A stretch of 64,000 nt of DNA from a virus (Duplodnaviria > Caudoviricetes), in the IMG/VR virus record IMGVR_UViG_3300049926_000039, positions 5,804 through 69,803 of that record; one strand, given 5' to 3'. The notes beneath the pieces are model-generated. The model was given only the letters and a program-made list of their open reading frames with translations. It did no database searches and had not been told where the DNA came from. Shown here one piece after another: positions 708-49,923 of this stretch. The stretch's first letter is position 1; the number at the start of each line of letters is the position of its first letter. A program made the translations under genes and the position numbers.

Positions 708-1159
708 CCCGCGGGACCCGGTGCGCCGCGCACCGGCACGAGTATCCGACCGCCGAGGAGTACCACCACCTGCAACCCCTGTCGCGGGGCGGGAAAACCG
801 AGCAGGCCAACATGGTGTGGCTGTGCGCTAATGCCCACAGCGACGTGCACTACTTCCTCGACACGATCGAGCGCCGCGCGAGGAAGGGCGAGCGTCATCC
901 CGCGTCCGTTCCCGGCGTGACCGCGGTGCATTACGGCCCGGCGATTCGACGCCTGGCCCGGTTGGGGTGGGCGAGGTATGCCGATGATTTCCTGGCCGGA
1001 CGGCTCGACGCGCACGTGATGTTGTGGTCGTCGTCTGGTGCGCCGCGCCTGGAAATCTCCACCGACCTGACGCCGTACTCGCTCGCCGTTCGCCGTTCCG
1101 AGGCCGCTCACTGGCTGAGCGTGGCCCGGATCAAGCTCGCCCTCGAGGAGAAACCGTGA
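704..1159 (+). CDS. HNH endonuclease (possibly HK97 gp74-like packaging accessory)
   Basis: EYHHLQPLSRGGKTEQANMVWLCANAHSDVH HNH motif; start reassigned to GTG 704. Confidence 0.75.
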   Translation: MTRGTRCAAHRHEYPTAEEYHHLQPLSRGGKTEQANMVWLCANAHSDVHYFLDTIERRARKGERHPASVPGVTAVHYGPAIRRLARLGWARYADDFLAGRLDAHVMLWSSSGAPRLEISTDLTPYSLAVRRSEAAHWLSVARIKLALEEKP

Positions 1160-1338
1160 CGTACCTGCCCGCCGATCGCATGCTTACCCCCGCCGAGGTT
1201 GCCGAGATGTTCCGGGTGGATCCGAAGACCGTGACCCGATGGGCGAAGGCCGGCCGGATCAGCAGTATCCGCACCCCGGGCGGGCACCGCCGGTTCCGAG
1301 AGTCCGAGATCCGCGCGCTGTTCGACGGTGAGGCATGA
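1156..1338 (+). CDS. bldC: BldC-family MerR-like HTH developmental regulator
   Basis: LTPAEVAEMFRVDPKTVTRWAKAGRISSIRTPGGHRRFRESEIRAL closely matches Streptomyces BldC as recalled. Confidence 0.85.
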   Translation: MTYLPADRMLTPAEVAEMFRVDPKTVTRWAKAGRISSIRTPGGHRRFRESEIRALFDGEA

Positions 1339-1342
1339 CCAG

Positions 1343-1462
1343 GTGAGCGCCCCCAAGGAGCCTCCGTGGTTGTTCCGGCTGATGGGCCTCGCCATGCTGG
1401 CCGGGATTCTGATCATCGTTCCGATCATGATCTGGCTGCTGTTCTTCCGGCCGTACCCGTGA
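1343..1462 (+). CDS. small membrane protein (39 aa)
   Basis: MSAPKEPPWLFRLMGLAMLAGILIIVPIMIWLLFFRPYP, single TM helix, GTGA overlap with next gene. Confidence 0.5.
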   Translation: MSAPKEPPWLFRLMGLAMLAGILIIVPIMIWLLFFRPYP

Positions 1463-1659
1463 TCAGCCGTGCCGTCGTCGCGATGTGGTCGGCCGTGCTG
1501 GCTCTCGTCGCGCTCATGGGAGTGCAGTGGTTCGTGACCACGCCCGGGATGGTTACCGATCGGGAGTTGCACACGATGATGCTGGCGGCGATCCCCGCCA
1601 TGACCGTGGTCCTCTCGGCCTTCTGGGTCGATGCGGGACGTCGGGAGAATCGACGGTAA
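1459..1659 (+). CDS. small membrane protein
   Basis: two hydrophobic segments, GTGA coupling. Confidence 0.55.
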   Translation: MISRAVVAMWSAVLALVALMGVQWFVTTPGMVTDRELHTMMLAAIPAMTVVLSAFWVDAGRRENRR

Positions 1660-1698
1660 GTGCCGTAAGGTCAGGGGGGACCGAGCCGAGGAGTGGCC

Positions 1699-2115
1699 AT
1701 GCGAAGGATCGTCGCCACACTGAGCGCCACCGTGCTGGCCGTCGTCGCCGGACTGTCCGCCGCGACTCCCGCTCACGCCGACTTCTCTTGGTGTCCTGCG
1801 GGCAAGTTCTGCATGGCGACCAGCGAGAACGGTAACGGGACCAAGTGGTCGTACTGGGTGTCCGCCCAGAACGGCGGAGTCGAGATGGCGACCGGTCAGC
1901 GTTCGCAGGTGTCGTCGGTGTGGAACCGTACCGGTGGTAACCAGTGGATGTACCAGAACCCGACGTGCACCGGACCGGGGTCGATCTTGTTCAACCCCGG
2001 ACAGGCGTTCAATCTTGTCGGTACCTCGTGGGACAATGCCACCCGCTCGTTCTGGAATCAGGACTCCGGGGCTTCCCCACTGAACGGTGTCGACTGCTTC
2101 CACAAGAACGGATGA
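1699..2115 (+). CDS. secreted peptidase inhibitor I36 / beta-gamma-crystallin-like protein
   Basis: signal peptide (AHA-D), CPAGKFC...SSVWNRT...C...WDN pattern, RBS GAGGAG. Confidence 0.75.
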   Translation: MRRIVATLSATVLAVVAGLSAATPAHADFSWCPAGKFCMATSENGNGTKWSYWVSAQNGGVEMATGQRSQVSSVWNRTGGNQWMYQNPTCTGPGSILFNPGQAFNLVGTSWDNATRSFWNQDSGASPLNGVDCFHKNG

Positions 2116-2555
2116 CGACCATGAAGATTCGCCGCATCGTGTCCCTGCTCGCCGTATCGCTGCTCGCGTCCGTCGGCCTGGCGGTCACGGCAAGTCCCGC
2201 GCAGGCCGACTTCTCCTGGTGCCCGGCCGGTAAGTGGTGCATCGCCACGGACGTCAACGGCAACGGCAACAAGTGGAGCTACTGGGTGAGCGCGCAGGAC
2301 GGCGGCGTCGAGATGGCGTCGAGTCAGCGCTCGCAGATCAGCTCGGTGTGGAACCGCACCGCCACGACGGAGACGCTGACCGACAACCTGACGTGCACCG
2401 GCAACAAGGTGGGCATTCCGGCGGGTATCGCTACGAACCTGTCCGATGTCGGGACGGCCGCTCACACGTCGTGGGACAACATCGCCCGGTCGTTCTATAG
2501 CTCGGGTACGACCCAGCCACCGCCGGGCGGGCCCTGCAACCACCAGAACGGGTGA
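2112..2555 (+). CDS. secreted peptidase inhibitor I36-like protein (tandem paralogue)
   Basis: signal peptide AQA-D; mature N-terminus DFSWCPAGKWC nearly identical to the upstream gene. Confidence 0.75.
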   Translation: MTTMKIRRIVSLLAVSLLASVGLAVTASPAQADFSWCPAGKWCIATDVNGNGNKWSYWVSAQDGGVEMASSQRSQISSVWNRTATTETLTDNLTCTGNKVGIPAGIATNLSDVGTAAHTSWDNIARSFYSSGTTQPPPGGPCNHQNG

Positions 2556-2559
2556 CCGA

Positions 2560-3120
2560 ACGTCACAATCTCGGCCGTGGAGGTCATTCTAAGTCTCACG
2601 CGCTGTAAATAACGCCTCTGAGTGACATCCTGCAAGATCGGCCCCTGACGGGACATCGACCGTTCTGCATGGGTCGGACGGCAGGACAGAGGAACAAGGC
2701 CCTGACCAGGCATTATGCAGGCCAAAGTGGGGGATTACGCAGCGTGAGAGCCGAAAATTGCTCAGAGAAAAAGATCTTTGCGGCGCGGCGCGTTTCATGA
2801 TCGCTCGGACCTAAAAATCGGCCGTTACTCAGCGACGTTTCCGCAGGTCAGAGCCTTGATCACATTACATCTCACGCTCTGTGCATACGCTACTGTGCGT
2901 AGTGGGCCACTGTGGGCGTCGTTGTGCCCGATCGTTGACTACTAAGCGTTGAACTTCACGCGTGTAACTACATGCACGTAACTACACGCGTGTATGGCTC
3001 AACCTCAGTGCAACACGCACACCATCACGCATCATCACCTATGCACACGCACTACCCCATGCCGCGCACCCATGCATGTAGGTAGATCTGCTTAGCTCAT
3101 ACCGTAAGTGTCACAAGTAC
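2560..3120. other. AT-richer non-coding region, candidate packaging/terminus (cos-like) region
   Basis: no credible ORF, strong CA/TG strand skew (3000-3070), palindromes (TACACGCGTGTA), CCGCAGGTCAG motif, A/T runs. Confidence 0.35.
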
Positions 3121-3136
3121 TGCTAGCATCCCGACC

Positions 3137-3577
3137 ATGACCACCTTCCGCTCGGTACCCCTGACCCTCACCACTACCGCCCTCGCCCTGGCCCTGTCCG
3201 CATGCGGCACCTCACCTACCACCCCTGACCCCACCCCTGTGGGTACCCCTGCCACCTCCGCCCCTGCCGCCCCTGCGGGTACCGGTGCCAAGGCCCCCAC
3301 TCAGGGAACCCCCCGTACCAAGCCCCCCGTCAAGGCGGCCCCTGCACCCACCATCACCGAGGGCACGTGGCACGTGGGTGAGGATGTCCCCGCCGGCACG
3401 TACCGCACGGTGGATGTGGTCAGTTCGGAGGGCACCTGCTACTGGATGAAGGCCAAGGACTCGGAGGGTTCGGACATCATTGCCAACGGGGTGCCCACGG
3501 GTGGACATCCGCAGGTCACCTTGGTCAAGGGCCAGTGGTTCACCACCGAGTCATGCGGTACGTGGGTCAAGCGGTAG
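3137..3577 (+). CDS. lipoprotein
   Basis: lipobox LSA-C, Pro/Thr/Ala linker, GTWHVGEDVPAGTYRT...CYW domain; TGCTAGCAT-N7-ATG leaderless promoter. Confidence 0.8.
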   Translation: MTTFRSVPLTLTTTALALALSACGTSPTTPDPTPVGTPATSAPAAPAGTGAKAPTQGTPRTKPPVKAAPAPTITEGTWHVGEDVPAGTYRTVDVVSSEGTCYWMKAKDSEGSDIIANGVPTGGHPQVTLVKGQWFTTESCGTWVKR

Positions 3578-3869
3578 CCCGCCGTGGCGGTGGGGCGGTA
3601 TCCTGATCGGGTAGTTGCCCAGCACGCGCGACCATATCGCGCACCGTAGGACTTGTGTGCCCCTACGCACGCCCCCGCATGTCGGGGCCGTTTGCGTGTC
3701 CGACTCCGGGTCTAGCCTGAGCGCATGGCCTGCGAAGCCGAGCACCACGAGCGGTACCGGAACCCCGGATGGGCATGCCGCGGGCGTGGACTGACGACGT
3801 TGCTCCGCATAGACCGGCCCGCCCTCGTGCCACGTGGCTTCACGCATGAATCGCGATTCGCGATTCGCG

Positions 3870-4175
3870 TCAGTCCCCGCCCATAGGGTTCTCCTCCATC
3901 GGGTCGCTGAGCACCTCGGCCCACATGATTGCCCCCGCAGCAAACAGACGGCGCCGCGACGCGAGTACCTCGATGACCATGCCCCGCTCGACCCGGGCCA
4001 CGAGGTCATCCCAGTTGCTCACGTCGCGGATGGCCAGCAGCCCGACTATCGCGGAGTCCCCGCCGTACAGGTGCAGTTTGACCAGCGTGCCCAGCCCGAA
4101 GCGGTGCGCGGCGGAGTCGGTCAGCGGATCGGGGATGTAGTCGTCGGGGTAGTGGTGCCCGTAGATCCCACTCAC
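3870..4175 (-). CDS. hypothetical protein
   Basis: 101 aa ORF coupled to upstream minus-strand gene. Confidence 0.6.
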   Translation of the reverse strand: MSGIYGHHYPDDYIPDPLTDSAAHRFGLGTLVKLHLYGGDSAIVGLLAIRDVSNWDDLVARVERGMVIEVLASRRRLFAAGAIMWAEVLSDPMEENPMGGD

Positions 4176-4492
4176 GGTTCATCGCCGAAGGGGTCCCCGG
4201 TCGGGGGGCGGTACACGGGCTTGTCGTGGAAGCGCAGGGTCGACCCGATCGGGGGGTCGATGGCATCCGCGATGTCGTCGGTCAGATGCTGCCAGAACGT
4301 CCGCACGTCGGATGCGTGGAACGGCACGAGGTCCGACTTCGTCTCGAACCGAGCGGGCGTCTCGTCGATCAGGCGCTGCCCGGCCGCCTTCGCTTCCCGC
4401 TGTGCGTCGGCCTGAGTGCCGATGCGGTCGGTCCATCCGGCGAGGATCTGCTCGGCGGCTCGAACCAACGCGCTCGTGGTGAATCGAATCAT
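4172..4492 (-). CDS. hypothetical protein
   Basis: ATG 4492 (MIRFTT), overlap with next gene. Confidence 0.55.
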   Translation of the reverse strand: MIRFTTSALVRAAEQILAGWTDRIGTQADAQREAKAAGQRLIDETPARFETKSDLVPFHASDVRTFWQHLTDDIADAIDPPIGSTLRFHDKPVYRPPTGDPFGDEP

Positions 4493-4550
4493 GGCCCTGA
4501 TCGTCGCATGCCGTACGGCGGACCGCGCTGCCCATCGATACGATGCCCTC

Positions 4551-4976
4551 ATGAGTACCTCCGCTCGCCGGCGACGTACCGTCGCCCTCCTCATGTCCCC
4601 GGTCATGGCGCTGGCAGGCGCCCTGGCGATCGCCACCCCGGCATCGGCAAACCCGTACTCGAACACCGACGGCTACTGCGAGCAGGGCCGCATCTGCTTC
4701 TGGGAGAACAGCTACGAGACGGGCCGCCGGTTCACGTACCGCCCGTCGTACGGGACGGGGTTCAATCTGCAGTCGATGGCCAACAAGGTGTCTTCGATCA
4801 TGAACCACTCGGGTGACGACTGGACGGTGTTCGACTGGGGCAACTGCGACCCCGGCCACTGGCATCGGTACGTGTACGACGGCGCCACGATCGACAACAT
4901 GTACGGCTCGGACTGGCAGGACCGGATCAGTTCCACCAGCGTGATCAGCCGGACTTATGCGGGTCCGCCGTGCTGA
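4551..4976 (+). CDS. secreted peptidase inhibitor I36-like protein
   Basis: signal peptide ASA-N, CEQGRICFWENSYETG...VSSIMN...WQDRISS; TACGAT-N6-ATG promoter. Confidence 0.75.
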   Translation: MSTSARRRRTVALLMSPVMALAGALAIATPASANPYSNTDGYCEQGRICFWENSYETGRRFTYRPSYGTGFNLQSMANKVSSIMNHSGDDWTVFDWGNCDPGHWHRYVYDGATIDNMYGSDWQDRISSTSVISRTYAGPPC

Positions 4977-5323
4977 CCCGCAGGGTGGGTACGGCCACGG
5001 CGGCGATGCTGCTCGGGGCTGCCGCGATCCTCGGGCTGGGCACTCCCGCGCAGGCGTCGGACGGCTGCGGATACCCGCACGTCTGCATCTACCAGGGCAC
5101 CGGCCAGTCTCGCCCCACGGGCCGCTTCCAGGACGTCACCTCGGGCTGGCAGTGGCTGAGCCGCTCGTTCGGTGCGAAGTCGTTCCGCAACACTCGCCAT
5201 GACGACGTCGCCTACATCCTGACGACCACCGGTCGGGTGATCTGCGTCCGGCCGGGGGCGACCGGCGGCCTGATGAACGGTGGGGCCACGGCCATCCGCA
5301 TCTCGTACCGCTCGCACTGCTGA
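4970..5323 (+). CDS. secreted I36-like protein
   Basis: signal peptide AQA-S, CGYPHVCIY...SFRNTRHDD...C pattern. Confidence 0.65.
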   Translation: MLTRRVGTATAAMLLGAAAILGLGTPAQASDGCGYPHVCIYQGTGQSRPTGRFQDVTSGWQWLSRSFGAKSFRNTRHDDVAYILTTTGRVICVRPGATGGLMNGGATAIRISYRSHC

Positions 5324-5758: not shown

Positions 5759-5815
5759 GATGATCCCTATCGGTGGGCGATTCGCTCGGTCCCATCATGG
5801 CAGGAAGGCGTGCGT

Positions 5816-6682: not shown

Positions 6683-6683
6683 T

Positions 6684-11063: not shown

Positions 11064-12746
11064 ATGACGGTCACGGCAGCGGCGGAACGGCGCGCAGCGG
11101 CGGATCGACGTCTTTACGCCGCGAACGCCGAGCGCTACAACCACGGCGACATCGCCTACAAGCGGTACCGATCGTTGGCCCCGGGTATCGGCGTGGCCCG
11201 TCGAGTGCCGACGAAGACGCAGATCCGGGCGGTTCCCGAGACGCGCAATGACAAGGAGCTCGTGCACACGTCGGGTTTCTTCACCGTCTACGACCGGGCG
11301 TACCCGATGTGGGACACGTTCGGCCAGTACGAGGAAGTGGTGGTACGCGGGGCGGGCGCGAAGACGATCGCCGCGAAGCCGGATGTCGCCTTCCTGACCA
11401 ACCACACCGGCATGACGATGGCCCGGACGGTGAACGGGACGTTGGTCCTTCAGGAGCGGTCCGAGGGCGGGTGGCATGACGCGTGGTTGAACCCTCAGCG
11501 CAGCGACGTGCATGACCTGGTCGTGGCCATCGATGACAAGAACGTCGATCAGATGTCGTTCGCGTTCACCATCCCGGAGGATGGCGGATGGTGGTCGGAT
11601 GACTTCACCCGGTACGACATCCGCTCGTACGATCTGGACCGTGGCGACGTGAGCGCAGTCAACTACGGGGCGAGCCCGTACACGGACATCTCCGCCCGTG
11701 CGGCCGAGGTGCTGGACGACATCGAGCGTCTGCCGCTGGGTGCGCTGCACGAGGCCGCGGCCCGTCTCACCGCGCGGGCTCGCGAGGGTTCCGGGCGGGA
11801 TGGGCGGATCGAGGTACGCCACGCACCCCGCACGGTCGATCCGGGCGCTTCCCGCGCCGTCCGCACGCTGCAAGGCCGTTTCGCCCGCACCGCGGCCCGG
11901 TACGTGGATCTGTCCGAGCGCGGGAATCTGGGCGTGGCCGATCTGGTGACAGCGCGTCTGCCCTGGTACGAGATCCGGGCGAGTGAGGCCCCCACCGGTG
12001 AGAGCGACGCCCCGGAGTCGACGGACGTGTTCATCTACGACGAGATCGGCGGGTCCATGGGGGTGGACGCGAAAACTTTTGCCGAAGATTTGAACGCCAT
12101 TTCCACGCCACAGATCAACGTTCGTATCAATTCCCCCGGCGGTTCCGTGTTCGACGGGCTCGCCATCCACTCGTCGCTGATGCACCACCCTTCGCACGTC
12201 ACCACGTACGTGGACGGCATCGCGGCGTCGGCGGCGAGCGTGATCGCGCTGGGCGGGGACGAGATCGTGACCATGCCGGGCGGGCAGTGGATGATGCACA
12301 ACGCGTCCATGAGCATCGACGGGCAGGCCGTCGACCTGCGCAAGGGTGCGACGTTCCTCGATCGGCAGTCGGGCAACCTGGCCGAGATGTACGCCAAGCG
12401 GATGAACGTCCCGGTCGAGGATGCGCAGAGGTTGATGGACGAGGAGACGTGGGCGTTCGCCGAGGAGTCGGTGGAGTTGGGCCTGTCCGATCGGGTGGGC
12501 GAACGCAACCCCGCGAAGGTGCCGCAGGACATGTCCGAGCGAATGACCCGGAAGCATGATCTGACCAGGTTCGGCTACCGATACCTAGGCCGCTTCGCCG
12601 CCCCCGCCCCCCGTCAGACGCGCGTACCGGACGTCGCCAACGACCTCGTTCGGCGGGCTACATCGGAGCGCACTACCCCCGAACAGCCGAAAGGCCGTAG
12701 CATCGCCTTGATCGAGGCGCAATTGGGTCTTGACGAACGTAGTTAG
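11064..12746 (+). CDS. fusion: HK97 prohead protease + ClpP-like (S14) protease
   Basis: N-half FLTNH...MSFAF...DVSAVNYGASPYT; C-half INSPGGSVFDG, GIAASAASVI, MMHNA, EETW. Confidence 0.88.
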   Translation: MTVTAAAERRAAADRRLYAANAERYNHGDIAYKRYRSLAPGIGVARRVPTKTQIRAVPETRNDKELVHTSGFFTVYDRAYPMWDTFGQYEEVVVRGAGAKTIAAKPDVAFLTNHTGMTMARTVNGTLVLQERSEGGWHDAWLNPQRSDVHDLVVAIDDKNVDQMSFAFTIPEDGGWWSDDFTRYDIRSYDLDRGDVSAVNYGASPYTDISARAAEVLDDIERLPLGALHEAAARLTARAREGSGRDGRIEVRHAPRTVDPGASRAVRTLQGRFARTAARYVDLSERGNLGVADLVTARLPWYEIRASEAPTGESDAPESTDVFIYDEIGGSMGVDAKTFAEDLNAISTPQINVRINSPGGSVFDGLAIHSSLMHHPSHVTTYVDGIAASAASVIALGGDEIVTMPGGQWMMHNASMSIDGQAVDLRKGATFLDRQSGNLAEMYAKRMNVPVEDAQRLMDEETWAFAEESVELGLSDRVGERNPAKVPQDMSERMTRKHDLTRFGYRYLGRFAAPAPRQTRVPDVANDLVRRATSERTTPEQPKGRSIALIEAQLGLDERS

Positions 12747-32360: not shown

Positions 32361-32765
32361 TCACAACAGCACGCTCCCCAGAAACCCGCAGAACAACAGC
32401 AGGGTCAGCGCGGTCAGCGAGCCGAGCACGTACGCCAGAGTCGCCGACTCCCAGGTGTACCGGTCGGGCGGGGGGCGGTCCGGGATCTCGGCGGTCAGCA
32501 CGCGGTCCATCTCGGCGAGCTCCTGCGCCCGCACCCACGTCCTGATCAGCAGCCGGGTGTCCCCCGGATCCATCCTGCGCAGGTCGGCCAGCGGGATGCC
32601 CGACCGGATGGAGAACAGTTCGAGCTCGGCGCCGGGCCGCAGCATCCGCTCGGTGTCCGTCAGCGTGCGAGGGTCGGCGCGGATCAGCCGCACAAGATCC
32701 CGCTCTCGCCACTCGGCGAGGGGCGACCGTCGGGGCGGCCGACTAGATCTGACATGTTCCTGCAC
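32361..32765 (-). CDS. hypothetical protein with C-terminal TM helix
   Basis: RBS GAGGAGG, 134 aa. Confidence 0.55.
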   Translation of the reverse strand: MQEHVRSSRPPRRSPLAEWRERDLVRLIRADPRTLTDTERMLRPGAELELFSIRSGIPLADLRRMDPGDTRLLIRTWVRAQELAEMDRVLTAEIPDRPPPDRYTWESATLAYVLGSLTALTLLLFCGFLGSVLL

Positions 32766-33183
32766 GGGTACGCCTCCTCGGGTTGTGGTGATCGTTGGCG
32801 AGATCTTCACCCGCAAGCGCGCCATCCCGAATGGCCGCACGCTCCGCAGCTCGAGCAGCGGAGCGATCGGGCAGCCAACGGATCGGCACCATCACGCCGG
32901 TGGACTGCCGCATCCACCACTCATCGTCGGGATCGGTGAGGTGCCGCGACCCGCGCACCTCGGGCTCGTTCGAGATGCCGTAGTAGATCGGCCGCAGCGT
33001 CGTCGCCCACAGGTAGCAGTACAACAGGTGGGGCACATCGGCGCGGACCGGACGGCGGACGGGCAGCGCCCGGGGGGGCGGTAGTTGCTGCACCGCATCC
33101 TGCGCACGCCACCTGGCGATCTGCACGATCAGGGCCAGCACCAGCCACGCGGTGAGGGTGAGCAGAACGAGTCCGAGCGTCAT
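32743..33183 (-). CDS. N-terminally membrane-anchored GIY-YIG nuclease
   Basis: TM helix then LLYCY...IYYGIS...RGSRH...AERAAI...LAN. Confidence 0.65.
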   Translation of the reverse strand: MTLGLVLLTLTAWLVLALIVQIARWRAQDAVQQLPPPRALPVRRPVRADVPHLLYCYLWATTLRPIYYGISNEPEVRGSRHLTDPDDEWWMRQSTGVMVPIRWLPDRSAARAAERAAIRDGALAGEDLANDHHNPRRRTRAGTCQI

Positions 33184-33419
33184 CGGGCCCACATCGCAGC
33201 CACCGCGGCTGCCATGCCACCGGCCATGCCCATCAGTCCGGACACGATCAGCAGCACGTCCACCGACAGCGAGTCCGCACCCTGCCGGTGCATCCACGCC
33301 CACATGCACCCGACCAGCACCATGAAGCCGAGGGCGGTCAGGGCTACGGCGGCACCCATCCACCGGACGACCCGGCGCTGCACGACGAACTCCGTCTGAC
33401 CCCGGGTGCTGTGACTCAT
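33180..33419 (-). CDS. small two-TM membrane protein
   Basis: 79 aa, ATGA coupling. Confidence 0.6.
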   Translation of the reverse strand: MSHSTRGQTEFVVQRRVVRWMGAAVALTALGFMVLVGCMWAWMHRQGADSLSVDVLLIVSGLMGMAGGMAAAVAAMWAR

Positions 33420-33805
33420 GACGGCCGCCACTCCTCGCGGTATCCGGGCTTATCGGCGTACGGCAACGCGCGTATCTTGACGGCGGTCAACAGGCCGTAC
33501 GCCTCGCCCGCAGGCGCCTCGCGGTGCAGGTCGTAGTAGGTCCGGGCTTGTTCGTACTCGTCCAATAGCCGTCGGTCGGCGGCCACCTCGGCCAGCACGC
33601 GGGCCGGGTCCCAGCGGGCGATGTGCACGGGATTCACCTTCGACCACGGCCCGCCACTGAAGCCTTCCGAGACGGTGAGGCCCTGGTCGTAGGAGTGCAC
33701 GTCCTCGCCGGACCTGCTCACCGTCCACGGGCCCGGCGTCGCTCCCCGTGCCACCCGCTCGTCCTCATCGAGCTGGGCGCGCAGCCAGGTCACCAGGCCG
33801 TTCAT
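33416..33805 (-). CDS. DUF6221-like protein
   Basis: WLRAQLDEDERVA...HIARWDPARVLAEVAADRRLL...ALPYADKPGYREEWRP. Confidence 0.75.
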   Translation of the reverse strand: MNGLVTWLRAQLDEDERVARGATPGPWTVSRSGEDVHSYDQGLTVSEGFSGGPWSKVNPVHIARWDPARVLAEVAADRRLLDEYEQARTYYDLHREAPAGEAYGLLTAVKIRALPYADKPGYREEWRPS

Positions 33806-34191
33806 CGCGGCATCGCCACATACGCGAGGGCCAGCAGGGCGACGCCGGCGACCAGCACCCCGTGCCACCACATCGGGCGCGGGGGGCGGCCGGTCGCGAG
33901 GGCCATCTGCCGGGCCTGCACCCCGGTCACGGCGTAGGTCGACGCCACATAGGCGAGCAGGGCGAAGAACCCGAGGGATGCCGCCGCGAACGCGATGGTG
34001 CGGTGGTCGACGTGGAACCACATCCACGCGCACCCGATCGCGACCAGGACGAATCCGACAGCCCACGGAATCCAGCCGCCGAACAGAATCAGGTAGGCGT
34101 GATCGTGCCCGACTTTCCGGTTCGCGGCGAGACGGCGGATCTCGCGGTCGTGGGTCCGCCGCTCGGCGGAGCTGACATATCGGCGGGCCAT
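33802..34191 (-). CDS. membrane protein (possible Spd-like spread protein)
   Basis: three TM helices, downstream of tra genes. Confidence 0.55.
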   Translation of the reverse strand: MARRYVSSAERRTHDREIRRLAANRKVGHDHAYLILFGGWIPWAVGFVLVAIGCAWMWFHVDHRTIAFAAASLGFFALLAYVASTYAVTGVQARQMALATGRPPRPMWWHGVLVAGVALLALAYVAMPR

Positions 34192-34585: not shown

Positions 34586-34954
34586 TCAGACCTTGAGGGT
34601 GGAACCCTTCTTCTCCCGCTCGGCGCGGGCGACGGCGACGGGCACCACGACGAGGCGGACGAAGTCGATGTTGGCGGCTTTCATGTAGAACGCGGCCGAG
34701 GTCATGTGCTCGGCGGAGCGCTGCATCTGCCGGATGACCCGGTTGGCCGACTTGTTGGCGTCCGACCCGATCCCGAGCCGGTTGGTCCCGTCGAGCCCCC
34801 ACTGACGCAGGGTGGCGACGATGCGGGGATGCAGCGCGGCGGCGGTGTTGAGGGACTGGTCGGCGCCCTGCATGAGCCCGGCGCGGAAGGCGTCGGTCAT
34901 TTGCTTCATGTCCTCGGCGGTGTAGATGTCGATCCTCGGGGGGAACGTCGGCAT
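34586..34954 (-). CDS. TraA-like plasmid transfer accessory protein
   Basis: size, helical pattern (PRIDIYTAEDMKQ...ANRVIRQMQRSAE) and position next to traB resemble Streptomyces plasmid TraA; weak recall. Confidence 0.45.
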   Translation of the reverse strand: MPTFPPRIDIYTAEDMKQMTDAFRAGLMQGADQSLNTAAALHPRIVATLRQWGLDGTNRLGIGSDANKSANRVIRQMQRSAEHMTSAAFYMKAANIDFVRLVVVPVAVARAEREKKGSTLKV

Positions 34955-34959: not shown

Positions 34960-35155
34960 GCCTCTTTCTGCTGACTTTCTGGCTACGGTCTGTGACTTGA
35001 CGGACTTTCCGTGATCACTTAATCTATGACAAACGCTGTCTTTCCGCTGAGTTTCCAACGACTTGAATCCTCTCTTTCCGGGCGGAAAGTCGGCCGATCT
35101 CCTTAGGTCGCGTCCCTCCCTCTGCCCGACTTTCCACTCCCGCGACTTTCCGGGC
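34960..35155. repeat. clt-like locus: 8-bp GACTTTCC repeats directly downstream of traB
   Basis: exact GACTTTCC at 35003, 35128, 35144, inverted at 35084; variants at 34973, 35038, 35049, 35072. Confidence 0.7.
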
Positions 35156-35164: not shown

Positions 35165-37345
35165 TCACGCACCGTGCGTGCGCGGGCCCGCGATGTACGT
35201 GAGCAGGTAGTGCCCGCGCACGCCGTCCCGCTCGATCGTGAGCCCCGGAGGCGAGACGAACTTGCCCTCATCGCACAGTCCCGTGAACCGCTTCGAGATC
35301 CACGACTCGGACGGCTGGACGACCATCTCGGCCACCACGTCCGCGTTCGTGAACCGCATGACCTTGCGCTCGGCCATCCTGACCAGCGCGGCGTCGAACT
35401 CGGCCACCGCGTGCTCGGGCGACGACGGGCGGGGCTTCAGTCCCGGGCCGTCCAACTCGATGTTCTGGCCGTCACCGAGCGGCTCGACCGGCTCGCGCGG
35501 GTCGCCGTACTCGGCGCGTTCCTCCGCTGTGGGCGCGGCCGGAGCATCCGGGTCCAAGTCTTCGCCCAGGTCGTCGCCGTCGAGCTCCATCGTTTGCTGC
35601 ATGTCGGTCCCTTCGCTTGCGTTTGCGCTGGTCACGGTCGTGACAGCGGGCTCTGCGTCGTCCTCGCCCTTCGCGCCGAACATGACCGCGGACGGGCGGC
35701 ACAGGTTCCACACGGGGCCGAGCACGCTGATCTCCTCATCGGTGAAGGTCGCCGGCGTGAACGTGGTCCGCGCCTTGAGCACCGCCTCGCGAAGGTCGCC
35801 GTAGTCCTCGCGGGTCTCGTAGGTGCGGCAGTCGATCGGGTACCGGGTCGGGTCCACCCCCGGCGCCTTGTCGAGGTAGTGGGCGCCCGGGACGCTGGCC
35901 GCGAACTGTTCGGCGTTGGCGCCCGCCTCGCGGGTCTCGTCCGAGATGACGAACGCCGAGTCATAGTCCTGCGTGATCCCGAACTGCTTCCACGCGCCGA
36001 CCGCCGCGCGGACGTCGGTGGACAGCGCCGTACCGACCGCGCGGGGCAGGGTGATCGACAGGCGGAAGCCGAGCGAACGGCCCTTGGTGGCCAGCCACTC
36101 GAAGTTCGCGCCCTCCTTCACGATGTCGAACTCGTCCGCGAAGATGTAGATGAACGGCATGCCCGTCGTGTACGCGGCGGCGGCGTTGAAATTGCGGTAT
36201 CCGCTCAGCGCGTCCGCCCGGTATTTGCCAAGCCTGCGCAACGCAGCGAAGAGCGCGAGCGACTGCGCACGCGAAGCCGAGGCGAGCGTGCACATGTCCA
36301 GGCACCATCCTGCGTTCTGCATGATCTTCGCTTGGTCGATGTAGATGGCGACGACATCGGTTCGCGAAAGAACCTCCGCGATCTCGATCGCCGCGTCGCC
36401 CGACTTCCCCGAACCGGTCATGCCCTGTCGACCGAGGAACACGTCGTTCGGGGAGCGAAACTTCGGTGCGACCCGGGAGCGAAGTTCGTCTGGGGTTCGC
36501 GCGAAGGAGAACCACTGCGGCGCCCCGTCGGAGTAGTACGCGGTGCGAATCGGCGCAGCGAAGCTTTCGCCCGGGTGAGACAACCCCGGCCACGGGCGCC
36601 ACGTCTTGTGCGGGTCGGTGTGCACGAGGCGAATCTGCGAGGTCCCGCCGCGTTCGGCGGGCACGATCGAACTTCGCCCGCGAATGATTCCGGGGTTCTC
36701 CTCCAGCGCGGGCAACGCACTTCGCAGTTGCGAGATCGGTACGCCCGTATGGTCGATGGTCGCGGTCACCGCGAACTCGTCGCCGTCGATAGTGTTCGCG
36801 CGGATGCGTGCGCCCTTCGGCCACTTCAGCAGGTCCGCCAGGCCGCCGCCCTCTTCGCCCGAGCTGGTCGCCGCGCGGAACGCGTCGATGCGGTAGAGCA
36901 GCCACGTCCCCGCGAAGAAGATCGAGCACAGCAGGTAGATCACCGCAGCGGACGCGGGGACCGTGAACACGTCCGCGATCCGGTTCCACCAGTGCGGCCC
37001 AGTCCGGTGCCAGCCGAGGATTACGCCGATCGAGACGGCCACCGCGAACGCCTCGATGGTGAGCGCGACGTGCCAGATCACGAACGGGATCCGCTTGGTC
37101 ACCTTGTGGCCGATGCCCAGCGCCACCCCGGGGCCGACCGTGCCGAACAGGAACAGCGACAGCCAGACCATCATCCACTTCAGTTCGGGGCTGAAGAACA
37201 GGAAGAACCGCAGCACGATGACCAGGGCGGGGACGCCGAACAGGGCCGTGAGCAGCACCGATAGGAACGGCTGTGCCCGGTCGTCGGGCTCCCGCTTGCG
37301 GGGGTTCCGCTCGCTGGTGACGTTGACGTTCGATGTCCGGCTCAC
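35165..37345 (-). CDS. traB: TraB-family FtsK/SpoIIIE conjugative DNA translocase
   Basis: N-terminal TM helices, Walker A GMTGSGKS, Walker B IFADE, C-terminal winged helix (SESWISKRFTGLCDEG...GHYLL). Confidence 0.85.
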   Translation of the reverse strand: MSRTSNVNVTSERNPRKREPDDRAQPFLSVLLTALFGVPALVIVLRFFLFFSPELKWMMVWLSLFLFGTVGPGVALGIGHKVTKRIPFVIWHVALTIEAFAVAVSIGVILGWHRTGPHWWNRIADVFTVPASAAVIYLLCSIFFAGTWLLYRIDAFRAATSSGEEGGGLADLLKWPKGARIRANTIDGDEFAVTATIDHTGVPISQLRSALPALEENPGIIRGRSSIVPAERGGTSQIRLVHTDPHKTWRPWPGLSHPGESFAAPIRTAYYSDGAPQWFSFARTPDELRSRVAPKFRSPNDVFLGRQGMTGSGKSGDAAIEIAEVLSRTDVVAIYIDQAKIMQNAGWCLDMCTLASASRAQSLALFAALRRLGKYRADALSGYRNFNAAAAYTTGMPFIYIFADEFDIVKEGANFEWLATKGRSLGFRLSITLPRAVGTALSTDVRAAVGAWKQFGITQDYDSAFVISDETREAGANAEQFAASVPGAHYLDKAPGVDPTRYPIDCRTYETREDYGDLREAVLKARTTFTPATFTDEEISVLGPVWNLCRPSAVMFGAKGEDDAEPAVTTVTSANASEGTDMQQTMELDGDDLGEDLDPDAPAAPTAEERAEYGDPREPVEPLGDGQNIELDGPGLKPRPSSPEHAVAEFDAALVRMAERKVMRFTNADVVAEMVVQPSESWISKRFTGLCDEGKFVSPPGLTIERDGVRGHYLLTYIAGPRTHGA

Positions 37346-38439
37346 GTGCTCACCCCTACCTCTGGCGCAGCGCCGTTGACGTGCTGGTCGGGGGCGGCCG
37401 GCGGGGTGAATTCGCCCAGCGTCAGCCCGTGCCGCCTGCGGTAGTCCTTAACCCATAGCTCAATGGAGCGCTTCGACTTGCCTACCTCCTTGGCGAGGTC
37501 GGCGGCACGCTCACCACCCTCGACCACCCTGCGGGCGAAGACGTCACGGCGGTCCCGATCTCCGTCCTTACTGCCCCGTTCCGGGAAGTTTGGGCGGGAA
37601 TCTCGCGGCGGTGGGGCCGACGCCACGTCTACAGACGGCGGGCGGATCTCCGCCTTAACGCCGCGGGGCATGGGGGCACGCCGTTGCGGCTTCAGCCCGC
37701 CGATTAGCCGACGGTTGTAAATCGGATGCTCAGCGTCGACCAGCACGCGCTCAGCGATCAGGGCATCATCGAGAGTCGGGTACGGCTCGAAAGTCCAGCG
37801 CACGACCAGGGGGAACCACTCTGTTGACTGCGCTTTGTGGGACCGCACGCGCGCGGGAAAGTCGGCAGTCGAACCGATGTACAGCGGCGGGATGGGGTCC
37901 TCCCCGAGCGCGCGGTAGACGCCAGGCTGCCTCGCGCCGAGATCCAGATCGACCGGGACCCCTGCCGCAACGCTCGCCTCCGCCACGACCTCCACCGGGT
38001 CCGGCTGGATCGACCGCCGTCGCCGCTTCAGCTCGAAGAGGCACATCGACGTGACAACAATCAGGCCGTCCACCGACAGCGGGAGGAGGTGCGAATACTC
38101 TTCGCCGTACCGCGAAGCGACGGCCGTCATATGCCAGTACGAAACCCAGGCAGCGACCGCCCCGACGACGCCCGCAGCAACGTAGCGAATCGCCGAGGCG
38201 AGCGAACGGCCGGCGGGCATGTACGACAGGAACTCGACCACAGCGAAGAACGCAAGCGGTGCCCAGGCGGCAATGACCCTGCCCACGAGCGAAGGTTGGG
38301 CGTGCATCGCGTTCGCGAAGACGGACGCCGCGACGCCCGCCGCCAGGCCGAAGCGAACCGCCCAGACGAGGGCGCCACGGGGGGACGCGGCCCCGCCGAT
38401 CTTCGCATCTACAAGCTTCGCTTCGCTCCTGGTCTTCAT
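37342..38439 (-). CDS. DUF2637 (SpdA-like) membrane domain + GIY-YIG + HTH fusion
   Basis: VAASVFANAMHA...AWVSYWHM...LPLSVDGLIVV; GVY...LYIGST...RVRSH...IAE...PIYN; C-terminal AADLAKEVGKSKRSIELW. Confidence 0.75.
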   Translation of the reverse strand: MKTRSEAKLVDAKIGGAASPRGALVWAVRFGLAAGVAASVFANAMHAQPSLVGRVIAAWAPLAFFAVVEFLSYMPAGRSLASAIRYVAAGVVGAVAAWVSYWHMTAVASRYGEEYSHLLPLSVDGLIVVTSMCLFELKRRRRSIQPDPVEVVAEASVAAGVPVDLDLGARQPGVYRALGEDPIPPLYIGSTADFPARVRSHKAQSTEWFPLVVRWTFEPYPTLDDALIAERVLVDAEHPIYNRRLIGGLKPQRRAPMPRGVKAEIRPPSVDVASAPPPRDSRPNFPERGSKDGDRDRRDVFARRVVEGGERAADLAKEVGKSKRSIELWVKDYRRRHGLTLGEFTPPAAPDQHVNGAAPEVGVST

Positions 38440-43730: not shown

Positions 43731-43732
43731 CC

Positions 43733-45753: not shown

Positions 45754-45756
45754 CCC

Positions 45757-46740
45757 ATGACCGAACCGCTGACCAGGGAACAGGCTGAGAAGGCCGACCA
45801 CATCCTCCGCAATCGCACCCCGAACCTGAACAAGGCGCTCGCCGCGTTCCAGGCCGAAATGCCCGCGCTCGAACGGGACCGACACGTTGACGTAGAGACG
45901 AAAGATCCAAGCAAGGCGTATGGGTACAGCTACGCCACCCTCGCCAACGTGACCGCCGTCGCCATGCCGCTGCTCGGCAAGCACGGGCTCAGCTTCACCG
46001 CGTTCCCAGGTGCCGGGTCCGACGGCAAGGGCATGTCGCTGAAGTACTCACTGCTCCACGAGTCTGGGGAAGAGCGGACGGGGGAGTGGCCATTCTCCGC
46101 CGAGGGCGGGATACAGATCCTCGGCGGGCGTCTTACCTACCTACGTCGCTATTGCCTGCTCGCCGTAACCGGGCTCGCCGCGGCCGAAGACGACGACGCG
46201 GCCGCCGCTCAGGCCGAGGACGAGGCCAACGCCGGGACGGTGCAGCGCCGGCAGCGGCCGCCCGTAAAGGCCACGGCCCGCCCCGCTACCGCCACCACCC
46301 GGGCGCCCGCCCTGGGCGCTGCGGAGGGCGAGACCGTACAGCGTCAGCGCCCGGCCAGTCCGCCGCTCCCGGGCGAAGAGGCCGACACTCCCACCGTGCC
46401 GATGCAGCGCAAGCTCGCTATTCAGTTCGGCCAGCTCGAAGTGACCGATCGGGACGAACGGCTGGCCCTGATGACCGACATGATCGGACGACCGATCACC
46501 TCGATCAAGGATCTGACCAAGAGCGAGGCGCACGCCGCGATCGACGCCATCGACAAGGCGCTGAAGACCGACAACCCGCTCACGTCGATGCTGGAGATCT
46601 ACCAGCGCACCTCGGCCGAACCTGCCGCAGCCGAGGGCCGTCCCGCCGGCCAGCGGTCGCGCAACGCCCGCGAGGCGGTCACCAACGGCGGAGACGAGGG
46701 CGCGGAAGAGGCGCCGTGGGAAGGACAGATGCCGGTATGA
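45757..46740 (+). CDS. ERF-family single-strand annealing protein
   Basis: YSYATLANV...LLGKHGLSF...TYLRRYCLLAVTGLAAAEDDDA. Confidence 0.85.
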   Translation: MTEPLTREQAEKADHILRNRTPNLNKALAAFQAEMPALERDRHVDVETKDPSKAYGYSYATLANVTAVAMPLLGKHGLSFTAFPGAGSDGKGMSLKYSLLHESGEERTGEWPFSAEGGIQILGGRLTYLRRYCLLAVTGLAAAEDDDAAAAQAEDEANAGTVQRRQRPPVKATARPATATTRAPALGAAEGETVQRQRPASPPLPGEEADTPTVPMQRKLAIQFGQLEVTDRDERLALMTDMIGRPITSIKDLTKSEAHAAIDAIDKALKTDNPLTSMLEIYQRTSAEPAAAEGRPAGQRSRNAREAVTNGGDEGAEEAPWEGQMPV

Positions 46741-47102
46741 ACGACTTCCGCGTCCTAGTAACGGGCGCGCGTGTCGTCTCGCCGCGGGTCGTGGTCGTCG
46801 TTCAAGGAGAATGCCCGTACGGCGGCGTTGACCTCGTGGCGAAGAAGTGGGCCGAAGGTTCGCCGGGGGTGGCATCGGAAGGTCACCCAGCCGAATGGGA
46901 TCGACTGGGCAGGAGGGCCGGTCCGGTCCGTAACGCGCACATGGTCAGCCTCGGCGCCGATGTGTGCCTAGCCTTCCCGGCCAAGGGCTCGCGCGGCACG
47001 TGGGACTGCCTTCAGCGGGCCGTGGACGCCGGGATTCCGTCGCACCTGTATCCGCTGCACATCCGAGAGGACGACGAGCGGGAAGGGGAGATGCCGATAT
47101 GA
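46737..47102 (+). CDS. SLOG-family (DUF2493-like) protein
   Basis: RVLVTG...VQGECPYGGVD...AEWDRLGRRAGPVRNAHM...CLAFP...SRGT. Confidence 0.8.
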   Translation: MNDFRVLVTGARVVSPRVVVVVQGECPYGGVDLVAKKWAEGSPGVASEGHPAEWDRLGRRAGPVRNAHMVSLGADVCLAFPAKGSRGTWDCLQRAVDAGIPSHLYPLHIREDDEREGEMPI

Positions 47103-47284
47103 CCGCGACCTCCATCATCGCGGGAGTAGCCATCCTGCTCGCCGTGTTCGCCGTCGTGTTCATCGGCATGGCCCGAACGGCGGGCATCAAGGAAGCCCTC
47201 GTTTCTTGGGCGTACGCGCTGGGGTTCACGGGCGCCATTCTCGCGGGAGCCTTTCTGATCTCCGCAGGGATGGGGAAGCTATGA
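47099..47284 (+). CDS. small membrane protein
   Basis: two TM helices. Confidence 0.55.
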   Translation: MTATSIIAGVAILLAVFAVVFIGMARTAGIKEALVSWAYALGFTGAILAGAFLISAGMGKL

Positions 47285-47634
47285 CCACCACGCCCGAGGG
47301 CTTCACCGTCGAGCGCTGCCGGACCGAGACGTGCAAGGCGCCGATCATCTGGGCGCGCACCACAAACGCCAAGACCGGAAAGTCCGGGACCATGCCGGTC
47401 GACGCCGAACCGGTCGCCGGCGGCAACGTCCGCCTATACAGCCGTCAGGGCATCGTGTGGGCCGAAGTGGTGCCCAGCCAGGTGACCCCGGCGGACTTGT
47501 TCGTATCCAGCGGCAGCGACGCCTACCCGCCGTTTCCCATGCCGGAGGAGACACTTCCGGCGCCGACCGAACCCCTGCGCACGTCGCACTTTGTTACGTG
47601 CCAGCGAGCGGCCGATTGGCGGAAGCCGAGGTGA
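47281..47634 (+). CDS. hypothetical zinc-binding protein
   Basis: CRTETCKAPIIW...MPVD...SHFVTC. Confidence 0.7.
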   Translation: MTTTPEGFTVERCRTETCKAPIIWARTTNAKTGKSGTMPVDAEPVAGGNVRLYSRQGIVWAEVVPSQVTPADLFVSSGSDAYPPFPMPEETLPAPTEPLRTSHFVTCQRAADWRKPR

Positions 47635-47725
47635 CCAGCGCGGCATGGGAATGGATCTCAGTGGGGGTATCTGGTCTCGCTGGCATCGCCATCGGGATGT
47701 TCATCGCTTGCACGGGCCGACGGCG

Positions 47726-48376
47726 ATGAACGTCATCGGGCTCGACCTCTCGCTGACCGCCCCCGGGCTGTCCGTCCCCGACCGGACCGAGACGCTGTAC
47801 ACCGACGCCAAGCGCGGGGACAAGCGGCTCTGCGACATCCGAGACTGGCTTACCCACTACGCCCACACCCGCGCGCCCGTCCTGGCGATGATCGAGGCCG
47901 TGCCGCCGTACCAGTCAGGGTCGGCGATTCTCGATCTCGTGCACGGCGTAACCCGGGAAGTATTGGCCCGGTACGACATCCCGTTCGCCTACGTCAGCCC
48001 TTCCTCTCTTAAGCAATTCGCCACGGGTGACGGATGGGCCGACAAGACGGCAGTGATGGACGCCGTGGAGGAGATGTCCGGCACGCGGCCGGCGGACGAC
48101 AACGCCGCAGACGCGTGGGTCCTGCGCCGGATGGGCGAGTGCCTGTGGGCTGACCCGTTCTTCCATCGCGGGCATCACCTGCAATCGCTCAGCTCGATCG
48201 CATGGCCGCTGAAGCCCGGCGACCCGAAATGGCCGCAGCCCTACGGAAAGCTCACGCGCAAGCCCGTGACTAAGAAGTGTCGACACGGGGTCGTCTGCCT
48301 ACGCAACGGCTACGAGTGGCTCCACCCGTTCGACGTCGCGCCCTGCGACAAGCCGCCCAAAGGGAAGGCATCGTGA
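47726..48376 (+). CDS. ruvC: RuvC-like Holliday junction resolvase
   Basis: VIGLDLSLTAPG, IEA, PSSLKQFATGDGWADK, DDNAADA. Confidence 0.85.
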   Translation: MNVIGLDLSLTAPGLSVPDRTETLYTDAKRGDKRLCDIRDWLTHYAHTRAPVLAMIEAVPPYQSGSAILDLVHGVTREVLARYDIPFAYVSPSSLKQFATGDGWADKTAVMDAVEEMSGTRPADDNAADAWVLRRMGECLWADPFFHRGHHLQSLSSIAWPLKPGDPKWPQPYGKLTRKPVTKKCRHGVVCLRNGYEWLHPFDVAPCDKPPKGKAS

Positions 48377-48570
48377 TTCTTTGCCACAGCCAAACGAACG
48401 GCGATGGGTCGCCGAAAGCGTCCTACCGGGATAAGGCAAGTGCGGGACGGGCTGCATCCCGGCTAATCCGATACGGCCACGCTGCACTTGCCAGGACGTA
48501 CGAATGTCCGCCAGGTGGGTGTGGAGGATGGCACGTCACGACCCGCCCACCGAAGGAGGACCCCCGATGA
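48373..48570 (+). CDS. small zinc-binding hypothetical protein
   Basis: C...YECPPGGCGGWHVT. Confidence 0.55.
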   Translation: MILCHSQTNGDGSPKASYRDKASAGRAASRLIRYGHAALARTYECPPGGCGGWHVTTRPPKEDPR

Positions 48571-49004
48571 CCGGGGAGTACCAGGAGCTCACCGCCGCCG
48601 ACTTGGCGTACCGATGGCGCGAACGGACCGTGCTCGAATCCCTCGATGAATCGCTCGCCGAGGCGCGGGCCACCAGCGAGGAGTACGCAACACCCGACTC
48701 GGCCCTGCGTTGGCTACTGAGGCTCGCATGGAGCGACCTGCAGATGGCACGCCACGACGCCCGCAACGGGAAATGGTCGATCGCCTGTGATCACCAGGTC
48801 AGCCGAATCGCCGGGCTGACCCGACTGGTTGGCCCCGTGTCGTGGGAGGTCGTCCCGGTCGACCTGATCCTCGACGGCATCTACGAACGCATCCACGAAG
48901 CCATCGGGACGCCGACGCCACTGTCCGACGACGATCGGCAGCAAGCCCGCGAAGTGATGGAGGCACGGTATGTACATCACACGCCAGGACAGGAGAAGAA
49001 ATGA
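48567..49004 (+). CDS. hypothetical protein
   Basis: 145 aa, RBS AAGGAGG. Confidence 0.6.
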   Translation: MTGEYQELTAADLAYRWRERTVLESLDESLAEARATSEEYATPDSALRWLLRLAWSDLQMARHDARNGKWSIACDHQVSRIAGLTRLVGPVSWEVVPVDLILDGIYERIHEAIGTPTPLSDDDRQQAREVMEARYVHHTPGQEKK

Positions 49005-49246
49005 ACAACAACCAGGCGCTCAGCATTGAGTACACACCCACTTCCCATCCCGTAGAACCCGGCCCAGAGACCTCTGTGCAGGTCACGATCACCGTCAGCA
49101 TCGCCGGCGAGACCAAGGAATTCGACGCCGATGCCGTCATCACCAGTGACGCGTTTTTCGTCGCGGGTGGACTGCTGTCGGGACTGACAGATGATGCCTG
49201 GCGGTGGATGGTCCGCGAGGGCCGCGCGCGCCGCGAACCCCAATAG
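49001..49246 (+). CDS. hypothetical protein
   Basis: 81 aa, ATGA coupling. Confidence 0.55.
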   Translation: MNNNQALSIEYTPTSHPVEPGPETSVQVTITVSIAGETKEFDADAVITSDAFFVAGGLLSGLTDDAWRWMVREGRARREPQ

Positions 49247-49333
49247 TCCCCCGGCCGGGCTACGCGCCTCACTGGACCGTGGCCCGACCGGGCCGTTCCG
49301 CATCCGCGTTCGAGAACGGAGAGAACAGACCCG

Positions 49334-49923
49334 ATGACCAAGATCCCACTACCGACCAGCAGTGAACGTGCCCTCGCCCAGGCCGAAGCCGCCGCAGACC
49401 GACGAGTAGCCGTCCCGCAGGAGTACTACACGGCCGAGCAGATCGGCGAGGGCGTCTGGGTGGCGCTGGCCGCCTGCCGCGACGAGGACCCCGAACTCTT
49501 CCACCCCATCGACGGCTCGCCCGTCGCCGTGGCCCTCGCCCAGACCATCTGCGCCGGATGCCCCCGTCACCCGAGCCTGCCGCGCCTACCGCTACGCCCA
49601 TCGGCGCGTCCGGGGTGTGGGGCGGCGTCTACTACGCGACCCACTCCGCCGGCGTCCGCAACGCCCGCATGAAGTGCGCCCTCATGAAGTGCCTGAACGG
49701 GGTACGCCGCACCAACCCGTATTGCTCGTTCGCCTGCGAGCACAAAGCCAAGGCCGGAACCGACGCCGGGTACCGGATGCACCTGGACGAGATCAGCCGC
49801 CTGCGCAAGGCGGGACAGGACGTACCCGACGCTGTGAAGATCTGTCCGCCGTGCGCCGCGGCGAAGGAAGCCCGCTCCCGGCAACGCATGCCCAACCGGC
49901 CAGACCTGCGGGTCGACGCCTAA
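49334..49923 (+). pseudogene. whiB: WhiB-family regulator interrupted by two apparent 1-bp C insertions
   Basis: AACRDEDPELFHP...ICAGC in one frame, GVWGG in another; removing one C near 49561-49565 and one near 49589-49590 restores CAGCPVTRACRAYATPIGASGVWGG. Confidence 0.75.

Follow-up and report, generated by a model that had tools for sequence, protein, structure and literature searches.

The DNA analysed here, hereafter the window, is a stretch of 64,000 nucleotides that spans positions 5804-69803 in one virus record of IMG/VR (IMGVR_UViG_3300049926_000039, 69,803 bp), which CheckV rates as complete. It covers most of a tailed-phage genome, complete at 69.8 kb, from a filamentous, mycelial soil actinomycete, and the hosts are likely to be Micromonosporaceae or Streptomyces-like organisms. 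A leftward block of genes at 28.4-38.4 kb houses a globin and the operon of a TraB-type DNA translocase, and a BldC-family gene stands near the left end of the window. Our comparisons bear out part of the integrated hypothesis of the initial annotation: TraB, globin and BldC-family genes are recurrently associated in uncultured, integrase-less actinomycete phages, secreted proteins of the I36 family are lineage-specific cargo and the remaining genes of interest are incidental. The features that make up the association are these:

35165-37345, minus strand: TraB-type FtsK-like double-stranded DNA translocase of 726 amino acids (aa), with a match to NF041214, Walker A and B motifs, four N-terminal transmembrane segments and 35% identity to TraB of pCQ3
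34960-35155, no strand assigned: clt-like array of GACTTTCC/GGAAAGTC 8-mers, located after the traB stop codon and before the next gene
37342-38439, minus strand: protein with a DUF2637 domain of four transmembrane segments, a GIY-YIG-like region and a C-terminal helix-turn-helix (HTH); its stop codon overlaps the traB start
34586-34954, minus strand: conserved 122-aa gene directly after traB and the clt-like array, with no family match in Pfam, PHROG or NCBIfam
33180-34191, minus strand: three small genes, candidate Spd-like partners (two to three transmembrane segments at 33180-33419, DUF6221 at 33416-33805, three transmembrane segments at 33802-34191)
32743-33183, minus strand: membrane-anchored protein with a GIY-YIG-like domain (PF01541, E-value 0.0011, under the cut-off) and one N-terminal transmembrane segment
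31013-31654, minus strand: single-domain 3-on-3 globin with an N-terminal CxxCxGxG motif, assigned by PF00042, its pocket residues and an AlphaFold2 (AF2) model
1156-1338, plus strand: BldC-family MerR-like HTH protein of 60 aa, which shares its first bases with the stop of the preceding HNH gene (704-1159)

The 726-aa protein matches the NCBIfam model plasmid_TraB (NF041214) with an E-value of 5e-60 and 203.6 bits over model positions 192-621 of 639, and TraB of pCQ3 is its best plasmid match. The Walker motifs, GxxGxTGxGKSG and DExD, are invariant across three homologues, and the membrane anchor consists of four N-terminal hydrophobic segments inside residues 27-144. The window genome (G000) was compared with 29 related viral records, made up of 23 other viral genomes and six further contigs. 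Intact TraB homologues are present in G001, G002, G017, G018 and G019, at loci L181, L184 and L187, and in G059, G060 and G062, and every TraB reading frame that is fully visible is intact; a scan of the TraB alignment over GTDB genomes found nothing. Downstream of traB, the repeat GACTTTCC accounts for four of its seven exact copies in the window (1.2 expected) at 35003-35151, and in the exact-match test four copies in the array were attained in 1 of 1000 shuffles. Allowing one mismatch makes for a weak test, in which the observed count was attained in 6 of 200 shuffles. G017, the nearest TraB relative, has five copies of CGGAAAG at the matching position, the core GGAAAG being common to it and to the window genome. 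Downstream of traB in G002 (59200-59430, in L082) lies an A+T-richer intergenic region in which CTGCAA/CGCAAA motifs are repeated instead of GGAAAGTC; this repeat falls short of significance in the exact-match test.

traB lies in an operon of membrane proteins. The protein encoded immediately upstream, at 37342-38439, matches PF10935 (DUF2637) with an E-value of 6e-9 and a PHROG endonuclease with 3e-7, the Pfam GIY-YIG match reaching just 0.07. Homologues of the gene at 32743-33183 occur in G001, G002, G017 and at L181, L184 and L187, while homologues of the 122-aa gene follow traB in G002, G017, G018, G019 and again at L181, L184 and L187. A GntR protein (PF00392), the partner of TraR/Kor type, is absent from G000, G001, G002, G018 and G019. 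The initial annotation had described a TraB/clt/Spd module with membrane nucleases. TraB, the clt-like array and the operon of membrane proteins are borne out, and two tra-operon proteins carry GIY-YIG-like nuclease domains, albeit with weak signals, but no homology of the Spd candidates to SpdB2, SpdB3 or Spd79 is demonstrable. Transfer through hyphae would be the most likely function of the module, and we put its probability at even or slightly better.

How far does this arrangement extend beyond one genome? The capsid family of the window genome has 228 relatives in IMG/VR. TraB was found in 2 of 16 capsid relatives, and these are the closest ones (G001 and G002, both 63-kb records with terminal repeats); a search with the TraB alignment added G017, G018 and G019. 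The globin occurs in exactly six TraB-bearing records (G000, G001, G002, G017, G018 and G019) and in none of 14 TraB-less relatives, and three further independent contigs have the identical gene order of DUF2637-like gene, TraB and globin. At L185 and L186, TraB was not found within the stretches of 12-21 kb examined, which reach up to 10 kb either side of the globin. A tighter globin alignment (A3) brought in eight more IMG/VR contigs, four of them complete. Three complete genomes of 67-71 kb (G059, G060 and G062) encode a more distant TraB 28-36 kb from the globin, and they are without the window-type capsid and have a Phage_capsid_4 capsid instead. TraB and the globin are paired in both capsid lineages, which are unrelated. 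If complete genomes alone are counted, 8 of 9 globin-bearing ones have TraB, as against 0 of 6 globin-less capsid relatives (one-sided Fisher p ~0.0014, without phylogenetic correction). The initial annotation had called for a check of co-occurrence across its whole list of genes: TraB, globin and the BldC family do recur together, and I36 does so within the lineage, but WhiB, GH26 and the lipoprotein do not.

The globin itself is genuine, as had been annotated. It scores 30.7 bits against PF00042 (cut-off 22), and the Tyr, Phe-Pro, Gln-Arg and proximal His residues that make up its haem pocket are invariant in 10 homologues together with the N-terminal CxxCxGxG. The AF2 model adopts a globin fold with a predicted local distance difference test score (pLDDT) of 81, above 90 in the core; Foldseek relates it to flavohaemoglobin, neuroglobin and phytoglobins, with template-modelling (TM) scores of 0.7-0.85 to globins, and a profile search of the PDB matches 3wfw. 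A protein search returned 57 globin homologues, nearly all of them metagenomic and many on contigs of 56-70 kb; a scan of viral contigs with the single globin sequence gave no match. In 50,697 cultured phage records there is no tblastn match to the globin, to either of the TraB types or to two of the I36 proteins. A distant globin-domain gene (28% identity; H74) lies on a plasmid of Micromonospora zamorensis (NZ_CP107937.1, 107517-107936), where it is annotated beside a gene for a nitric oxide synthase oxygenase. Gas or redox sensing would be a plausible role for the phage globin.

The BldC copy is equally genuine. It scores 105.9 bits on NF033787 (cut-off 77), stands alone without an effector domain, and has 82-89% identity to cellular BldC, the named ones coming from Planosporangium and Dactylosporangium, and 75% identity over 53 aa to the solved BldC in PDB entry 6AMA. 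Cellular BldC (6AMA/6AMK) has 68-76 aa, whereas the window protein, at 60 aa, lacks the terminal tails and is encoded by a phage, beside an HNH gene. A related HTH occurs in 137 cultured-phage records, mostly at about 45-50% identity; named cultured actinophage HTH genes reach at most about 50%, the best match is an unannotated faecal 'Bacteriophage sp.' record at 61%, and no BldC above this value was found in cultured phages. Weak PHROG and Pfam hints at a small terminase or an excisionase were set aside in view of the 82-89% identity to cellular BldC, and because there is no integrase.

The position of BldC-family genes elsewhere bears on what the protein may do. In G059, G062 and G060 such a gene (88, 72 and 38 bits, respectively) directly precedes traB, the start of which it overlaps, and the TraB homologues have 764-791 aa (L196 3305-5774, L197 3172-5650 and L198 3134-5753). 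Two small actinomycete plasmids have a comparable arrangement. On pAGRA3207_1 of Actinomadura graeca (L179 10188-17594) an annotated BldC-family gene is the first of an operon ending in FtsK/TraB, with a GntR-type gene opposite, and on p1 of Nonomuraea gerenzanensis (L180 8872-17849) one opens an operon that ends in FtsK/TraB and additionally holds an SsgA-family gene, with a UTRA-domain gene opposite. The closest relatives of the window genome (G001, G002, G018 and G019) have no BldC-family gene, and the link between BldC and TraB, to judge from gene positions, is recurrent, not universal. Because BldC-family genes overlap traB, a role as DNA-binding partner or regulator of the transfer operon is suggested, as a rival to the steering of host development for which the gene had been annotated; perhaps BldC substitutes for the missing TraR of GntR type. 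Developmental steering by BldC would itself be plausible.

The transfer and globin genes share their replicon with a set of virion genes.

7474-28335, plus strand: virion block with terminase, portal, S78+ClpP prohead protease, major capsid, tail genes, tape measure and a holin-like protein with four transmembrane segments

The terminase has 32% identity to that of pFP3, the portal matches PF04860 and the major capsid protein has 31% identity to capsids of cluster-J-type mycobacteriophages; capsid homologues are also present, at no more than 63% identity, in prophages and plasmids of Micromonospora, Streptomyces, Amycolatopsis, Nonomuraea and Actinoplanes. Positions 11064-12746 encode a single protein of 560 aa that combines a Caudovirus S78 prohead protease (residues 65-214) with a ClpP-type protease (residues 347-481). 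A further block, again rightward, has genes for ERF, a RuvC-like protein, a DNA methylase, DnaN, DnaB and endonuclease VII. The G+C content is about 67%, and 103 genes were called by codon-position G+C; no tRNAs were found in the window, its 69,803-bp source record has no terminal repeat, and 24 kb of the window gave no nucleotide match in cultured phages. The pairing of virion module and tra locus on one replicon is repeated in at least eight complete related genomes. Independent contigs repeat the layout of phage plus TraB, on which ground a chimaeric assembly was rejected. The interval 1156-49923, which the initial annotation treated as one element, is no discrete feature; its ends are simply those of the first and the last gene on the list, with phage genome in between.

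The other genes on that list, and one beyond the interval, are cargo of several kinds:

1693-2115, plus strand: secreted I36-family protein, copy 1 (PF03995, E-value 5.5e-8, 33.1 bits), with a signal peptide
2112-2555, plus strand: secreted I36-family protein, copy 2 (PF03995, E-value 4.7e-5, 23.7 bits), with a signal peptide; tandem duplicate of copy 1
3137-3577, plus strand: predicted lipoprotein with a signal peptide ending in an LSAC lipobox; no Pfam match
4551-4976, plus strand: secreted I36-family protein, copy 3 (PF03995, E-value 7e-10, 39.1 bits), with an RRRR-containing signal peptide
4970-5323, plus strand: small secreted Cys-containing protein, membership of I36 unsupported
49334-49923, plus strand: interrupted WhiB-like gene, with CxxC, the next Cys and the GVWGG motif in three different frames
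62184-63116, plus strand, outside 1156-49923: GH26-like glycosidase with a signal peptide (PF02156, E-value 1.8e-7)

Four secreted I36 proteins had been annotated. Three of them pass the Pfam cut-off of 21.1 bits, copies 1 and 2 forming a tandem pair with 53% identity, but the fourth (4970-5323) has no match in Pfam, PHROG or NCBIfam and no significant similarity to the others (BLASTP against copy 3, E-value 0.6-1.2). I36 proteins above the cut-off are also found in G001, at a syntenic locus (46.7-47.9 kb), and in G019, that is, in 3 of 5 complete genomes of the window's capsid lineage and in none of 14 TraB-less relatives; they are absent from the TraB-bearing fragment G017 and from the globin-bearing G059, G060, G062 and G064. 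The lipoprotein has the lipobox on which its annotation relied, and its C-terminal part (window 3374-3577) has 36% identity to a hypothetical open reading frame of pCQ3 just after the traA-traB region. The GH26-like protein is matched over part of the model: the match above cut-off covers PF02156 positions 154-253 of 311, about a third. GH26 is absent from G001, G002, G018 and G019, and GH26, the lipoprotein and the 4970-5323 protein are without counterpart in any relative. The span 1156-5323, which separates the HNH gene from the terminase region, varies in its cargo and has a lower G+C content (63% at 2-4 kb). The predicted I36 proteins are a recurrent secreted cargo at this variable locus, and the putative lipoprotein and GH26 enzyme are one-off cargo.

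WhiB, which the initial annotation took as functional, is not intact as assembled. Its first open reading frame covers PF02467 model positions 1-35 of 65, and the domain is spread over three frames within about 70 nt, so that the four Cys ligands and GVWGG are not in one polypeptide. The lesion (window 49540-49620) consists of two single-C insertions about 45 nt apart, located in a C5 and a C3 run. It may mark a true pseudogene or an error of local assembly. Since the long genes in the rest of the genome are uninterrupted, general sequencing error is a somewhat less likely cause than a real lesion; as assembled, the gene is, to judge from its frames, inactive. An intact WhiB gene occupies the syntenic place in G018 and G019, and WhiB is present in G064, G003 and G005 and absent from G001, G002, G059, G060 and G062. 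WhiB has no association with TraB.

Elements that are at once phage and plasmid provide the closest parallels. pZL12 (Zhong et al. 2010) is a characterised Streptomyces element that is both a conjugative plasmid and a phage, as cited in PMC3583192 and PMC4487206. Like the window genome, pZL12, pCQ3 (NC_013449.1) and pFP3 (NC_023067.1) unite virion genes of a tailed phage with a tra (FtsK/TraB) locus of Streptomyces type, the latter two by annotation. Capsid, portal, terminase and DnaB of pFP3 have 32-55% identity to their counterparts in the window, and pFP3 is the best plasmid match for capsid, portal and DnaB; pFP3 and pCQ3 carry WhiB, and pFP3 carries DUF2637. These plasmids differ from the window genome in having ParA or ParAB, tyrosine integrases and GntR regulators (PMC4487206), and they have no homologue of the window globin. 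Loci L144, L146, L158, L161, L163, L164, L172 and L177 are separate actinomycete contigs of 34-42 kb, the size of the linear plasmid pFP3, with a related capsid. As many actinomycete assemblies hold pFP3-sized contigs with such a capsid, plasmid-phages like pFP3 seem to be widespread. The tra locus can also be compared with the system of pSVH1/pIJ101 type, in which TraB recognises 8-bp clt repeats and whose Spd homologues possibly spread phage DNA through the mycelium (PMC4447253). Shared features are a membrane-anchored FtsK-like TraB by an array of 8-bp repeats and an operon in which small membrane proteins are encoded by genes that overlap at their start and stop codons; unlike that system, the window lacks a GntR partner of TraR/Kor type, and the element is a phage.

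Based on these observations, we propose that the window genome belongs to an integrase-less TraB-globin phage that is maintained as an episome and whose DNA is spread through hyphae by TraB pumping, an explanation that we consider the best and hold to be fairly probable. Tyrosine integrase, serine recombinase, ParA-type ATPase (AAA_31) and GntR are all missing from G000, G001, G002, G018 and G019, and no tyrosine integrase was detected in G059, G060, G062 or G064; none of the eight complete TraB-bearing genomes tested has one. After infection, the phage genome would persist or replicate as an episome. TraB hexamers would bind the clt-like repeats and drive the double-stranded DNA of the phage through septa or into adjacent hyphae, and this would afford spread and inheritance independent of virions, comparable to those of the plasmid-phage pZL12. 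The BldC copy may regulate or assist the transfer operon, or may mimic host BldC to keep the host vegetative, and the globin may provide an input linked to O2 or nitric oxide (NO), or protection.

Several observations weigh against this explanation. The 203.6 bits of TraB lie far under the equivalog cut-off of NF041214, which is 800; the protein has no match to FtsK_SpoIIIE of Pfam (PF01580), and its profile retrieves just one marginal FtsK match from PDB sequences. As for the repeats after traB, they reach significance only in G000 and G017 and fall short of it in G001, G002, G018 and G019, and DUF2637 is above its cut-off in the window genome alone and below it in relatives. BldC is located 34 kb from traB in the window genome, beside an HNH gene in the variable cargo locus. 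G064, a complete genome of 43,111 bp with terminal repeats (L194), has the globin and WhiB and no TraB. The co-occurrence counts are small, were partly collected with TraB or the globin as bait and are uncorrected for shared descent. Finally, no repressor or plasmid-maintenance gene was identified, and for this reason the episomal state is a conjecture.

The initial annotation had gone further and united all of these genes in a single co-adapted programme, in which BldC would extend vegetative growth, globin and WhiB would read NO and redox cues, TraB and Spd proteins would move the genome and the secreted proteins would condition the surroundings. The near-identity of the phage BldC to that of hosts, the joint recurrence of TraB, globin and BldC-family gene and the distribution of I36 in the lineage speak for such a programme. 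Actinophages with WhiB, SsgA and Lsr2 homologues are, moreover, already known, and Hardy et al. proposed that they manipulate development through them (PMC7650747); the window genome resembles these phages in having a host-type regulator, but its WhiB is interrupted. The programme loses several of its members: WhiB is frame-shifted, missing from five globin- and TraB-bearing genomes and present in the TraB-less G003 and G005, GH26 and the lipoprotein are confined to the window genome, I36 is absent from the second capsid lineage, and nothing links the globin to NO or development. We regard the programme as a whole as unlikely.

Similarly doubtful is the possibility that TraB serves segregation, with the pump and its recognition repeats placing episomal genomes in hyphal compartments or pre-spores as a substitute for partition, and without conjugation from hypha to hypha. 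Such a role would agree with the resemblance of TraB to FtsK/SpoIIIE, with the use of the same protein for plasmid spreading within the mycelium (PMC4447253), and with the distribution of maintenance genes, as a tyrosine integrase occurs in 0 of 8 complete TraB-bearing genomes and ParA in 0 of 5 of the window's capsid lineage. However, the window TraB groups with plasmid TraB, plasmids of TraB type that also have ParAB exist (pCQ3 is one), and the roles in transfer and in segregation are compatible with each other. Our preferred explanation, hyphal spread of an episomal phage by TraB, could also be extended into a more speculative form, of which we are no less sceptical: TraB, the CxxCxGxG globin and the BldC-family HTH would be one functional module enabling non-integrating phages to live as conjugative episomes, in which the BldC paralogue would govern the transfer operon or aid it, with cross-talk to targets of host BldC, and haem-based sensing of O2 or NO would choose between silent hyphal spread and virion production. 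Least probable of all is a lytic or temperate siphophage of the ordinary kind that picked up unrelated 'moron' genes from hosts and plasmids, whose associations would reflect the common descent of few sampled genomes; the ten or so other genes specific to the same clade, the variability of the locus between the HNH gene and the terminase and the small sample are in its favour, but TraB and globin are also paired, at a distance of 28-36 kb, in a lineage whose capsid is unrelated, all TraB frames seen in full are intact, and in three genomes there is translational coupling of a BldC-family gene to traB.

What are the implications for phages of mycelial bacteria? Elements that unite a phage with TraB are already known, namely pZL12 and, by annotation, pFP3 and pCQ3; new are the link to a globin, the occurrence of BldC-family genes within tra operons of phages and the lack of genes for integration and partition. 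Filamentous actinomycetes are multicellular, and a phage that pumps its DNA between compartments would gain a second route of spread besides its virions. pZL12 is one cultured example showing that such spread is possible. Our results suggest that the uncultured group is a broader one, which has capsids of two types, lacks integrase and partition genes and repeatedly pairs TraB with a globin and a BldC-family regulator. This raises the questions of whether TraB mobilises phage DNA, what role a haem protein might have in such an element, and whether BldC-family proteins may act as part of transfer machinery besides their part in development.

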